Source: a virus
Taxonomy: Duplodnaviria; Caudoviricetes
Length of the DNA stretch: 64,000 nucleotides
IMG/VR virus record: IMGVR_UViG_3300025601_000007
Direction: 5' to 3' (one strand)
Shown: positions 5,106-58,477 of the stretch, piece after piece
Layout: every line of letters starts with the position of its first letter
Numbering within the stretch: the stretch's first letter is position 1
Program-made: the position numbers and the translations under genes
The notes under the pieces: model-generated
The model's input: the letters and a program-made list of their open reading frames with translations, nothing else
Databases searched by the model: none
Told to the model about the DNA's origin: nothing

Positions 5106-6596
5106 TTGAAAGAGAGCAAGATAAATAAAGCTTATAAGAATTTCCGCGACGCAGGACGTGCTGCATTGGATGTGTTAAAAAACGAAGGACCAGAAACAGT
5201 ACACGCTGTTAAATTGCTGTTGAAGCTGGGAGTAGGAAAAAAACTAGAGAAAAGTGAAATGCAGTTTCTAAAAGCGCAGTCTGTTGATATAGGGAAAATG
5301 GTTGCGTTATTTGGTTTGTTTATTATCCCAGGCGGGTCGTTAATTACTTTAATCGCTGCTGAGGGTCTAAAAAAAATAGGAATCAACCCTTACCCTTCAA
5401 ACCAATCACATTTAAGAGAAAACGAAATGATTAGGAAGCAAATACGTAAGATACTAGCTGAACAAATGCTTGGGAAGCAGGAAATAAGGATGCCTTTTGA
5501 CATGTCAATCCCAGAGGACATTTGGGAGCTTAAAAAATACTTTGATGCAGCAGGTAAGAAGCTATATGTGGTCGGCGGTGCCGTGCGTGATGTTTTAACT
5601 GCTAAACAGATAAAGGATTACGATTTGGCGACTGATGCCACTCCAGAAGAGATGATTAAATTTATCCCAAAACACATCTATACAATATTAGAGGCTGGTA
5701 ATATTTTTCCTGTTGTTCACTTGGTTACTCCAGAAAATGGGAGATACGAGATTGCCACTTTCCGTGTTGATGTCGGAACGGACCACCGTAAACCAGAAAC
5801 TCAGTTCTCTACAATCGACCAGGACGTTAAACGTCGTGACTTGACAATGAATGCGTTGTTCTACGATTTAGACACAAAGGAAATTGTTGACCTGGTGGGC
5901 GGAATCGCTGATATCCAGGCTGGAAGGGTTCGGACAGTGGGAGACCCAACTCAAAGATTTGCCGAGAACCAGATAAGAAAGCTTCGAGCATTAAGATTCA
6001 CAGCTAGAATTGGAAGCAAACTGGACCAGAGCATTCAAGACTCTTTGCTTGCCAACCCTTCTTTGGATGAGGAGGCTCCTGAGGCTATTATGGCAGAGGT
6101 GTTAAAAGGTATTGAGCAAGCTAAAAGTGTAAAGCACTTTATGAGCATGGTATTCAAATTTGGTTTAGACAAGTTTGTTTTTAAGGGGATTAAGACAAAC
6201 CCAAGAGGAATTATTGAGGAAAGGGACCCGACTTTGCTGTATGCTTCTCTCTTTAGAAACTCAGACCCAGGAAAATTGAGAGATGCGATTAAATCAAGGT
6301 TGAAATATTCTGATGACTTTGCAAAGCGCGTTATGTTTTTTGTAAAATTTATAGACTTTGAGCCAGGAAGAATTATGGAGTTCTACAAGCTTAATCAAGC
6401 TACAGCACATGTGTCTGAGGAAGATTTGGTGAGAGCAGGGGAGATTCTTGGATACGATAGCAAAATGGTTTCGGCGTTCTTTGAGTTCGCCCCAATTGCT
6501 GACGCAGATGAGCTGATGGCTCAAGGCTTTAAAGGCCAGGAGCTAGGGAAAGCAATGAAGGCGGTTGAGGTGAAACACTTCCTAAACCTATTATAG
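5106..6596 (+). CDS. Class II tRNA nucleotidyltransferase (CCA/poly(A) polymerase family) with N-terminal LETM1-like hydrophobic domain
   Basis: VGGAVRD..DYDLATDA, YEIATFR, RRDLTMNAL and ENQIRKLRALRF motifs; N-terminal DIGKMVALFGLFIIPGGSL segment; TTG start. Confidence 0.88.
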   Translation: MKESKINKAYKNFRDAGRAALDVLKNEGPETVHAVKLLLKLGVGKKLEKSEMQFLKAQSVDIGKMVALFGLFIIPGGSLITLIAAEGLKKIGINPYPSNQSHLRENEMIRKQIRKILAEQMLGKQEIRMPFDMSIPEDIWELKKYFDAAGKKLYVVGGAVRDVLTAKQIKDYDLATDATPEEMIKFIPKHIYTILEAGNIFPVVHLVTPENGRYEIATFRVDVGTDHRKPETQFSTIDQDVKRRDLTMNALFYDLDTKEIVDLVGGIADIQAGRVRTVGDPTQRFAENQIRKLRALRFTARIGSKLDQSIQDSLLANPSLDEEAPEAIMAEVLKGIEQAKSVKHFMSMVFKFGLDKFVFKGIKTNPRGIIEERDPTLLYASLFRNSDPGKLRDAIKSRLKYSDDFAKRVMFFVKFIDFEPGRIMEFYKLNQATAHVSEEDLVRAGEILGYDSKMVSAFFEFAPIADADELMAQGFKGQELGKAMKAVEVKHFLNLL

Positions 6597-6625
6597 TGTT
6601 GGTTGTGAAACAAGCAAATTGTTTT

Positions 6626-6633
6626 CTATTTAT
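6626..6633 (+). promoter_or_regulatory. CTATTTAT putative late promoter
   Basis: 14 nt upstream of ATG 6648. Confidence 0.55.
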
Positions 6634-6647
6634 AAGAAACACTTAAC

Positions 6648-6929
6648 ATGTACGCAACCAATGCTTTTGCTATCAGAAAAATCGTTCGTGAGATACTTAT
6701 AGAAAAGCATTTTTATGAAGGATTTGGCTTCGACCACAACATTGATGGGAAAAATGTTCCTGATTTAGAATCGTGGATGCTAAACGTTACTGATAAGCTG
6801 CGCTCAGCCACAGATATCTATAAAGACATCCAGGCGAGTGTTGAGCAGAGAGGTGCATTGGTTAAAAGTCATCAAAATTCGTCACAAACACTGGAGTCCC
6901 CTCCGACAACCCCAGGCCTAGAGTGTTAA
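6648..6929 (+). CDS. Hypothetical protein with IRKIVREILIE motif
   Basis: ORF preceded by CTATTTAT and carrying the recurrent N-terminal motif. Confidence 0.6.
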   Translation: MYATNAFAIRKIVREILIEKHFYEGFGFDHNIDGKNVPDLESWMLNVTDKLRSATDIYKDIQASVEQRGALVKSHQNSSQTLESPPTTPGLEC

Positions 6930-56184: not shown

Positions 56185-56781
56185 TTACTTCTTAGAGCGA
56201 AATACTATTTTTGGGATATAAAGGGTAGCTCTTTTTTTAAAACTTTTCTTTTTTAACTTATCCATGTCGATTTTGAATGCCTTGTTAGCATTTTTCAGCA
56301 CCTCTCGCTCCTTAGCTAAATCTTTGAACATGTTTTCCAACGATGTAATTTGAGAAGGAGTTTCGAATTCTTTATTTGGTCTTGGCTTCTGGATACAAGC
56401 AAAATCCTGTGTACTTTTTTTGTCTCTGAGTTTGTGGAAAATGTAGTTCTTCCCAGCTCTCTCTGCTTTCCAAATAGCAAACTTATTCTTCAGGTTTCTC
56501 ACCCATTTGTATTTGTTTTTACAAGGGTATATAGTAACAAACGCACCTGTGCCTTCTCCGTAGATACGGATGTAGTCGTTTTCTTTGATGCGTTTGGATG
56601 TTCCCCCGTGGTATTGATTACGAATATCCTGAGTGGATTTCATCCTCTCGTTGTAATTCGGCAGTTCCGATTTAACTCTAGCAGCCAAGCTGTTTAGTTC
56701 ATCTTGCTCTTGCTCTAAGTTAATTCCAACTTCGCTGAATAACTTATGGATATTTTTTAATTCTGATTCTTTTTCTTTCAA
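56185..56781 (-). CDS. Hypothetical basic protein
   Basis: TTG start 16 nt after CTATTTAT (56798-805). Confidence 0.65.
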   Translation of the reverse strand: MKEKESELKNIHKLFSEVGINLEQEQDELNSLAARVKSELPNYNERMKSTQDIRNQYHGGTSKRIKENDYIRIYGEGTGAFVTIYPCKNKYKWVRNLKNKFAIWKAERAGKNYIFHKLRDKKSTQDFACIQKPRPNKEFETPSQITSLENMFKDLAKEREVLKNANKAFKIDMDKLKKKSFKKRATLYIPKIVFRSKK

Positions 56782-56827
56782 AATGCTTATTTTTGGTATA
56801 AATAGACAGTGATTCCTTGAATGGGAA

Positions 56828-57793
56828 TTATTTTAACTTCCCGTGTTCTTTCAAAAGTGTCTTGTCTTGGCCTGGGAATCCGCTACATAACGGGTGTTTA
56901 CCGCCTTTGTAGGAACAAAAACGACAAGAGTTTTTGTCATCTATCAAATAGTTCCCGCCAAGGTCAACCGTTGGGTTTCCAGCGAAATCTAAAACGAATT
57001 TAGCTTTTTGAAAGTCTTGTTTGATGTGGATTTTGTTGAGTGACTCCGACATTGCCTCTATTGCCTGGCGAATTTCTCCTAGCGATGAAGTCATTGGAAC
57101 ATCAACAATTTCTCCGAAGCCCATGTCTGGCTTCTTCTTGTTTTTCAGTCTGTTCAAAACAACATACTTGGTATCTATCTGAGTCAAATCCACGTTGTTC
57201 TTTCTGGCCCAGAAATACTTATACAATTTCATTTGCATAAGGAAGGTTTTGTTTTTGTTCTTCCAGTACATATTCCACGGCTCAGAGGACGTCTTCCAAT
57301 CGATTATCACAATTCGACCAGTCTTTCTGTTTTTGACCACAAAATCAATAAACCCTTTGAAGTAAAAAATTCCATAAATGTGTTCGTAAAGAGGCTCCTC
57401 CACCGAGACTATCTCGTAATCTCGCATAAATGCTTCCACATCAATGGTCCGAAGCATGTTCTCGCCTTGGTCGGTGAACGCATCAAGGTCAGCGAACTCA
57501 GGGGTGTCTTTCATGTTCTCAATCATGTCCTTCCTGAAAGTGAGCTTGAAATGCTCTACTCGCTTGTCGGTGCTATACTCGTTCTCAAACGTGCGTTCAA
57601 TCGATTCGTGAATGGCGTTTCCGAAGTACAAGTGAATTGATGGAGGCTGTTGGTCCAGACCTAAGTGTTTCTCAATCAAGTGCTTGTGTCCGCATTCTCG
57701 GAATAATGAGAATTCTGAAAAAGAAATGTGCTTGTATCCCTTTTGTTTACCCTCGGCCATTACGCGAAACATATCTTCTTTGCCTTTGCTCAT
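56828..57793 (-). CDS. RecB/Cas4-like PD-(D/E)XK exonuclease
   Basis: SFSEF...ECGHK, FGNAIHE, KGFIDFV, IIDWKT, QMKLY, CRFCSY....C. Confidence 0.85.
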   Translation of the reverse strand: MSKGKEDMFRVMAEGKQKGYKHISFSEFSLFRECGHKHLIEKHLGLDQQPPSIHLYFGNAIHESIERTFENEYSTDKRVEHFKLTFRKDMIENMKDTPEFADLDAFTDQGENMLRTIDVEAFMRDYEIVSVEEPLYEHIYGIFYFKGFIDFVVKNRKTGRIVIIDWKTSSEPWNMYWKNKNKTFLMQMKLYKYFWARKNNVDLTQIDTKYVVLNRLKNKKKPDMGFGEIVDVPMTSSLGEIRQAIEAMSESLNKIHIKQDFQKAKFVLDFAGNPTVDLGGNYLIDDKNSCRFCSYKGGKHPLCSGFPGQDKTLLKEHGKLK

Positions 57794-57862
57794 AATACTG
57801 CTGTGTTGTGTCCTTAGCGAATATAATCAATTTTTAGATTATAATCTAGGCTATTTAGGTAT

Positions 57863-58477
57863 ATGGGACACGTATCCTCAATTTATCTTCATAAACTAAA
57901 CAGACTTGCTGGAATTGTTTCAGAGGCACTTAACACTGCCACTGCACCTGACCCTTTTGCGAGGTCCAACGAGCGTGTTCCTTTTAATGTCGACCTGATG
58001 CAGCAAGCAATCGAACAAGGTCTTGTGGTTGGTCTTCTGTTTCAATCCAACAACACCAAGTACAAGATGCCTGTAGCCAAGTACCGCAACATCATGCCTG
58101 TGGCTATGGGGTATGATAAAGACGGTAGATTAGTTTTTCGTGGGGTCCACGTTAAAGGTCAGAGTGAAAAGAAGGCTCGACAGACTGGCGTTAGAAGCGC
58201 AGAGGCATCGAACGAATGGAGGCTGTTTTTGGCATCAAATGTAAAAAGCATGTTCTTTACTGGGGGTTTCTTTTCCCAGGTGCCAATTGGAGGGTTTAAA
58301 TCAAATGACAGTGACATTACGCGTCAGATAGTATCGTTTGATGCGGGGCGAGCAAAAGCTTACCAAGACGAATATAACAAGATGTCGCAACCGCAGTCCG
58401 ACTACAGTCCTGAGTTGAACGAGAAGTCTAGAGTTATAAAGAGTTTGTTTAAGAAAGATTATCGAAGGAAGTGGTAA
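57863..58477 (+). CDS. WYL-like domain protein
   Basis: AIEQG..V...YRNIMPVAMG...GRLVFRG...WRLFLASNV. Confidence 0.6.
   Translation: MGHVSSIYLHKLNRLAGIVSEALNTATAPDPFARSNERVPFNVDLMQQAIEQGLVVGLLFQSNNTKYKMPVAKYRNIMPVAMGYDKDGRLVFRGVHVKGQSEKKARQTGVRSAEASNEWRLFLASNVKSMFFTGGFFSQVPIGGFKSNDSDITRQIVSFDAGRAKAYQDEYNKMSQPQSDYSPELNEKSRVIKSLFKKDYRRKW

Follow-up and report, generated by a model that had tools for sequence, protein, structure and literature searches.

A portable peptide tag on unrelated, probably late proteins of an uncultured giant T4-type phage and its possible role in head loading

In this work we analysed a stretch of 64,000 nucleotides (hereafter, the window) of the IMG/VR virus record IMGVR_UViG_3300025601_000007 (Duplodnaviria; Caudoviricetes), and in particular a short peptide, which we call the tag, that recurs in it on proteins of different kinds. 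About ten unrelated and probably late proteins of this phage bear the tag, an amphipathic peptide of 11 residues with the consensus [IL]-R-[KN]-x-[IV]-R-[EK]-h-[LI]-x-E. The tag is real, is under selection as a peptide, is portable between unrelated proteins and occurs clade-wide. Judging from sequence comparison, it is quite possible, if still short of probable, that it serves a clade of uncultured jumbo T4-type phages as a portable address tag, which would load proteins into the head and be cleaved there in a manner similar to the capsid-targeting sequence (CTS) of T4. The record, which includes the window, is 109 kb long and has a CheckV completeness of 31%. A 447-kb contig encodes a protein identical to one of this phage, which is therefore a jumbo phage; the source of the DNA is an uncultured giant phage of the T4 type, present in samples from Antarctic lakes (JGI and ENA).

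The tag and its bearers

A loose regular expression of the motif gave 10 matches in the proteome of the 109-kb record (33,223 residues), as compared to 0.44 expected from shuffles (maximum 3 in 500). The copies were graded by leave-one-out profile scoring, in which the chance level is the number of matches expected per proteome. Five mutually supporting copies, IRKQIRKILAE, IRKIVREILIE, IRKLIREVLED, VRRAIRKALLE and IRNFIREALLE, correspond to 0-0.07 chance matches per proteome each, and three weaker ones, IRNLVNQVIKE, IATTIREYLNE and LRNYIRELMVK, to 1.9-6.3. The weaker copies are plausible as genuine tags; their N-terminal placement speaks for them, and two also have tagged counterparts in relatives. 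A six-frame scan beyond the window added two strong copies absent from the training set: IRKYIRNILWE, which immediately follows a GTG start in the 5' part of the record, and LRRYIRSVVAE, which lies three residues from a C-terminus just past the end of the record. The first-pass annotation of this DNA had listed 14 examples of the motif, and all these strings are present in the open reading frames (ORFs) to which they had been assigned; the profile scan of the proteome supports five of them strongly and three weakly, leaves four at the chance level and sets two apart as a separate module (see below). The ORF bearing IRKYIRNILWE gave no Pfam match to a kinase. The ORF ending in LRRYIRSVVAE differs between two assemblies (L012 vs. 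L013, about 4140-5061), being a 125-residue gene beside a 177-residue gene in one and a fused 306-residue gene in the other.

The same tag residues are encoded by differing codons among the copies, therefore conservation takes place at the level of the peptide and not of the DNA, and DNA-level conservation was rejected on these grounds. Hidden paralogy of the bearers was also rejected, since BLASTP between them (8-10 strong copies) revealed no similarity outside the tag. Taken together, the differing codons and the lack of BLASTP similarity outside the tag indicate that the conserved object is a peptide that moves between unrelated proteins.

Relatives were searched for with the capsid protein as query, and two complete or nearly complete related jumbo genomes were found: G002 (372 kb, capsid protein 75% identical) and G004 (222 kb, 63% identical). 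When relatives were scored with profile positions 1-8 only, G002 gave 22 matches vs. 2.8 expected, with 10 vs. 0.17 expected in the first 15 residues, and G004 gave 16 vs. 1.5, with 8 vs. 0.16 in the first 15 residues. Of two T4-type fragments that are more distant, with capsid proteins 43-46% identical, one contained two N-terminal matches and the other none. The three tag-rich genomes together have 44 profile matches, 22 of which are within the first 15 residues (about 40-fold over chance), 19 internal and 3 C-terminal. In G004, half of the matches (8/16) fall within about 21 kb (34.4-55.9 kb, L123-L124), a region that resembles a cargo island.

The tag IRKQIRKILAE (5430-5462, plus strand) is found in the CCA-adding enzyme (ORF 5106-6596, 496 residues), between a hydrophobic N-terminal extension of about 107 residues and the PolyA_pol domain. 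The start of this ORF lies about 108 codons farther upstream, and the extension is 80-90% conserved in one relative; therefore this tag is internal. The first-pass annotation has to be amended accordingly, with the tag of the CCA-adding enzyme reassigned as internal; the tag in general is not strictly N-terminal. The enzyme is tagged in all three genomes, and in G002 and G004 the tag is at the N-terminus, without the extension. Downstream, IRKIVREILIE (6672-6704, plus strand) occupies residues 9-19 of a 93-residue protein (ORF 6648-6929), whose orthologues P0010 and P0011 have invariant tag residues and a divergent C-terminus, and the weaker tag IRNLVNQVIKE (7743-7775, plus strand) occupies residues 6-16 of a 104-residue protein (ORF 7728-8042). 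The tag IRKFIATTIREYLNE (19172-19216, minus strand) is at the N-terminus of a GNAT-like protein of 91 residues (ORF 18947-19222), and its counterpart in G002 bears MKLRKLIKTTIREYLNE, also at an N-terminus. In LRNYIRELM (21074-21100, plus strand; residues 16-24 of the 90-residue product of ORF 21029-21301) position 11 is not Glu; the orthologue in G004 has FKNLIREMISE.

Three strongly tagged genes (36786, 36188 and 33990) belong to a co-directional late gene run on the minus strand (33060-39725), which reads from 39725 to 33060, has a CTATTTAC box at its head, adjoins tail-like genes and also includes a weak PhageMetallopep match (33370-33972). IRKLIREVLE (36153-36182, minus strand) corresponds to residues 8-17 of the 737-residue protein encoded by 33990-36203, which has an ART-PolyVal domain and a weak GNAT match. 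VRRAIRKALLE (36719-36751, minus strand) corresponds to residues 9-19 of a ParB/sulfiredoxin (Srx)-like protein of 195 residues (36188-36775). The AlphaFold2 (AF2) model of the latter has a tag helix at residues 6-19, a low-confidence linker and a well predicted globular domain at residues 78-195, for which all fold matches are ParB/Srx and weak. Close homologues of this domain bear their own tag copies, either N-terminal or between two domains, and its distant homologues in giant polyvalent proteins are without the tag. IRNFIREALLE (37473-37505, minus strand) is internal, at a fusion boundary, being residues 353-363 of the 591-residue protein encoded by ORF 36786-38561. The segment downstream of this tag is a stand-alone, N-terminally tagged gene in both G002 and G004. 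Compared across genomes in this way, the evolutionary unit is the tag together with its domain. In near-identical lake variants (L003/L007 vs. window 36786-38561), the 591-residue tagged gene is split into 511 and 79 residues in two assemblies.

Two of the listed examples, KVKNFKQFVNE (16737-16769, minus strand, ORF 16311-16799) and KVKNFGKFLNE (17387-17419, ORF 17009-17449), form an N-terminal module separate from the main tag and shared by two neighbouring ORFs, whose N-termini are 48% identical across 33 residues. The corresponding motif, K.F..[FYL][LVI]NE, was not found in the relatives. Both ORFs, as well as the tagged GNAT-like one, lie in a low-GC island (16000-20000, 0.30 vs. about 0.39 elsewhere) of small minus-strand genes. 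IKKFLLE, LKDLIRKE, LRKFVKKEFE and LNALIKEE have profile scores under the threshold and are no better than chance; the first is at 39693-39713 on the minus strand (ORF 39258-39725), and the further chance-level examples are at 48969-48992, 49132-49161 and 52252-52275.

Head genes, late box and terminal glutamate

The 109-kb record contains neither the gene of the S77 protease nor that of Gp23. The head genes of the phage were reached by six hops through overlapping metagenome contigs encoding identical proteins. They form locus L021, about 70 kb past the end of the window, and are in a T4-like order, encoding two small proteins (275 and 173 residues), a Peptidase_S77 (gp21-family) protease, a very acidic scaffold-like protein of 461 residues and a Gp23-family capsid protein. 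The protease gene (L021:6614-8431, minus strand) encodes 605 residues in total and is split by a LAGLIDADG intein; a PhoH gene near it (L020:8056-9915) has a LAGLIDADG intein too. An alignment of 16 capsid proteins, from this phage and 15 relatives (43-85% identical), shows in all 16 sequences an invariant [LI]-[NT]-E (L-N-E in this phage) about 20 residues ahead of the conserved core. By analogy with T4, where gp23 loses 65 residues (PMC9026906), this tripeptide appears to sit where a T4-type maturation cut would be expected.

The box CTATTTAT is present in 15 exact copies in the window, as compared to 3.7 expected, and the ten that were checked against the gene list all face a downstream gene start. 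One copy (5061-5068, plus strand) is upstream of the CCA ORF, and others are upstream of 6648, 7244, the tail-like genes 23223, 26968 and 29619 and the endolysin gene 49907. (In near-identical lake variants, L004/L005 vs. window 29619-31916, the 765-residue late protein has 867 residues in two assemblies.) The box is found 20-30 nucleotides upstream of the protease, scaffold-like and 275-residue head genes of this phage, and the head genes of G002 and G004 have it upstream in the form [CA]TATTTAT; therefore it is very probably a late promoter. The first-pass annotation had proposed that the tagged genes share a promoter. Counts of the late box of the head genes at the tagged genes gave a mixed picture, with enrichment (p = 0.003-0.016) in some of them. 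In this phage (G000), an operon-aware count assigned the late box to 7 of 9 tagged genes vs. 35% of the others (p = 0.016). In direct counts of [CA]TATTTAT, the box precedes 10/20 tagged genes vs. 21% in G002 (p = 0.005) and 9/15 vs. 23% in G004 (p = 0.003). This enrichment appeared only when operons were allowed (G000) or when the box was redefined as [CA]TATTTAT from the head genes of the relatives. Judged by this promoter box, the tagged genes are probably for the most part late genes.

That the tag ends in Glu, as was originally claimed, is borne out at a fixed register: with matches picked blind to positions 9-11, a hydrophobic-x-Glu triplet ends exactly at position 11 in 19/44 matches (43%), as compared to a background of 2.4% (p = 1e-19). 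Triplets of this kind are also slightly overrepresented with their end 1-4 residues ahead of the tag, and several C-terminal and internal copies are directly preceded by one. The precedent invoked for the tag agrees with the literature: T4 internal proteins carry the CTS MKTYQEFIAE, which is removed once by the head protease (PMC8442874), and cleavage after Glu is common to the gp21-type proteases of T4 and giant phages (PMC5694885). In the T4 CTS, residues 4 and 7 are the main determinants of targeting, and processing relies on residues 8 and 10; with Asp at position 10 targeting still takes place and processing does not, and Alt is also processed at its C-terminus (PMC9026906). When the two peptides are aligned on the final Glu, T4 residues 4, 7, 8 and 10 fall on the conserved tag positions 5, 8, 9 and 11. 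In its best register on the tag profile, MKTYQEFIAE obtains a weak score of 2.8 bits, which is in the top 0.4% of 10-mers and is not significant alone. The likeness between tag and T4 CTS is one of pattern, which need not imply homology.

Cargo and possible functions

The first-pass annotation had described the tagged proteins as a set of nucleotidyltransferases, ADP-ribosyltransferases (ARTs), GNAT proteins, kinases, ParB-like proteins and peptidases. Among these labels, Pfam confirms only the CCA nucleotidyltransferase and ART-PolyVal, the latter in the 33990 protein (2.5e-11). The GNAT assignment is weak, that of ParB-like proteins comes from a weak fold match and homology only, the kinase label has no Pfam support, and the peptidase label corresponds to only a weak match on an untagged neighbour. 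Most of the tagged proteins have one domain. The 36188 protein has a single ParB/Srx-like domain, and its relatives sit inside proteins of 1,000-5,600 residues.

The best-supported reading of the tag is capsid targeting, followed by a helix that docks onto another partner, and then by a structural or regulatory helix without a sorting role. According to the first of these, cargo expressed late would dock via the tag helix onto the prohead core; the gp21-type (S77) prohead protease would then cut after the Glu of the terminal hydrophobic-x-Glu, and the cleavage would free the cargo within the head for delivery with the DNA. Part of the cargo is of kinds known to be packaged, such as an ADP-ribosyltransferase (T4 Alt is one) and the ART-PolyVal and ParB-type domains of polyvalent proteins; for the polyvalent proteins, of which ART-PolyVal and DdrB-like ParB domains are components, packaging and injection have been predicted (PMC5512222). 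A broader form of this proposal is possible but doubtful to us: that the tag labels every protein that is packaged and ejected, about 10-25 per genome, including the CCA-adding enzyme, the ADP-ribosyltransferase and the ParB-like nuclease, and that it would be active N-terminally, internally and C-terminally because the prohead protease would excise it at flanking hydrophobic-x-Glu triplets.

Several observations weigh against capsid targeting. The terminal Glu is present in 43% of the matches only, and the Glu residues of positions 7 and 11 might just as well take part in salt bridges of the helix. The 19 internal and 3 C-terminal matches, about 5 of which are expected by chance, are unlike the T4 CTS, which is N-terminal. 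The tagged proteins are acidic on average (median isoelectric point 5.7 vs. 7.7) and T4 internal proteins are basic; both a basic charge and a depletion of [LI]-x-E were looked for in the tagged proteins, and neither was found. Most of these proteins are without recognisable function, and a CCA-adding enzyme would not usually be expected as cargo of a head. The tag is absent from all head proteins of L021. Finally, neither exact CTATTTAT nor [CT]TATTTA[TC] within 60 nucleotides of ATG-called starts was significantly enriched at the tagged genes. A complex prediction with a tag-bearing N-terminus (45 residues), the scaffold-like protein and the two small protease-adjacent proteins gave a score of 0.00, with low predicted local distance difference test (pLDDT) values for all chains, and was counted neither way.

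Some of these same observations would fit a docking helix for another shared partner. This could be a machine of the host, such as the ribosome, RNA polymerase, a chaperone or a protease, or else a hub protein of the phage around which late accessory enzymes assemble. Like docking peptides, the tag occurs N-terminally, internally and C-terminally; part of the cargo is directed at RNA or nucleotides, as is the CCA enzyme, tagged in three genomes; the cargo is acidic, unlike the internal proteins of T4; and the head proteins examined have no tag. However, docking of this kind leaves unexplained the fixed register of the hydrophobic-x-Glu, the sharing of the late box of the head genes, and the presence of ART-PolyVal and ParB-type cargo, and we consider it rather unlikely.

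The peptide might also be a self-contained structural or regulatory element with no role in sorting. It could be a stable helix, braced by salt bridges, that caps or links domains at their starts, or a helix for weak oligomerisation or membrane binding; it could also mark late enzymes for degradation and so limit their lifetime. With hydrophobic residues at positions 1, 4/5 and 8/9, Arg/Lys at 2, 3 and 6 and Glu at 7 and 11, it would indeed make an amphipathic helix with i/i+4 salt bridges; AF2 predicts a helix, and tags are found at domain boundaries. With a generic helix, however, one would not expect a single consensus to be maintained on unrelated proteins of phages that have capsid proteins only 63-75% identical, nor the approximately 40-fold enrichment in the first 15 residues or the tie to late genes, so that we judge this explanation distinctly improbable. 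An origin of the motif from composition, from the choice of A-rich codons where genes start or from hidden paralogy is largely refuted and can be given very little credence: Lys, Ile, Asn and Arg are common in these AT-rich genomes and six listed examples are at chance level, but shuffled proteomes give 0.4-3 matches vs. 9-22 observed, the register is fixed, internal and C-terminal copies exist, and the bearers have no BLASTP similarity outside the tag.

Should the tag indeed direct proteins into the head, the set of proteins that uncultured giant phages inject would become readable from sequence alone, and dozens of candidate host-takeover or counter-defence proteins would be indicated. A tRNA-repair enzyme, the CCA-adding enzyme, would be delivered along with the DNA. 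The principle of the T4 CTS would be seen to hold for another consensus, for a far larger set of cargo proteins and at positions other than the N-terminus, and a new tag for loading foreign proteins into large capsids would be available. With another partner, the tag would nonetheless be the mark of a protein sorting or docking system so far undescribed and common to a whole phage clade.

Gene content of the window and known systems

Besides the CCA-adding enzyme, the window encodes a NAPRTase, an IF3, a thymidylate synthase, an SNF2 helicase, an SbcCD-like fusion and an endolysin, and it contains numerous ORFs without a family match. Megablast and tblastn gave no match of the window to the cultured-phage collection, PHROGs recognised only the endolysin among ten large proteins, the 737-residue protein gave a single marginal locus among viral contigs, and Rfam gave no match across the window. 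The IF3 gene (45903-46469, plus strand), which has both domains (Pfam E 1e-21 to 1e-22), is preceded by the late-box-like ATATTTAT. The SNF2-family helicase gene (52359-55376, minus strand) is split by a LAGLIDADG/Hom_end intein (Pfam), and a single ORF of 1,158 residues (60468-63944, minus strand) combines an SbcD-like metallophosphatase N-terminus with SbcC/Rad50-like Walker motifs. The SNF2/nuclease region is flanked by two direct repeats (51380-51679 and 59604-59903) of 300 nucleotides, 100% identical and 8.2 kb apart; each contains a spurious ORF of 58 residues, and Rfam found nothing there.

With regard to known systems, encapsulins load diverse enzymes into an HK97-fold shell by means of a short cargo-loading peptide at either terminus. 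The likeness to the tag, a short terminal peptide on diverse enzymes, is one of analogy only, since the shell is different, there is no protease step and the sequences are not similar. The polyvalent proteins of phages and conjugative elements (Iyer, Burroughs, Anand, de Souza, Aravind 2017; PMC5512222) provide a parallel for the cargo, because ART-PolyVal, ParB/DdrB-like, weak GNAT and weak PhageMetallopep domains occur here in one late gene cluster; here, however, they are mostly on separate proteins or on proteins of two to four domains, each of which is tagged.

In the jumbo phages SPN3US, phiKZ and 201phi2-1, propeptides of head and ejection proteins are cut by a gp21-like protease at A/S/G-x-E (PMC5694885, PMC10052503). 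The likeness lies in the size of the phages and in a gp21-type protease that processes packaged proteins after Glu. The paralogues of those phages share identical N-terminal propeptide starts, and their propeptides of more than 100 residues are comparable to the extension of about 107 residues that precedes the tag of the CCA enzyme. Their sites, however, have small P3 residues and were determined by mass spectrometry, whereas those of the present phage are predicted, and no common 11-residue tag across unrelated proteins has been reported for them.

The closest term of comparison is the T4 CTS itself. The consensus described here differs from it in being basic and weakly similar to MKTYQEFIAE, in beginning 2-8 residues after Met instead of at Met, and in being carried by about 10-20 proteins per genome instead of 3-4; it also has internal and C-terminal copies and a mostly acidic cargo that includes the CCA-adding enzyme, and it is known from sequence alone. 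On the other hand, both are short peptides common to unrelated proteins of a T4-type phage, in the present case probably late ones, and both have an ADP-ribosyltransferase among their bearers (Alt in T4). The hydrophobic-x-Glu end is the site type of the gp21-family protease, which is encoded also by this phage, and the pattern of hydrophobic and Glu residues lines up with the functionally mapped T4 residues 4, 7, 8 and 10.

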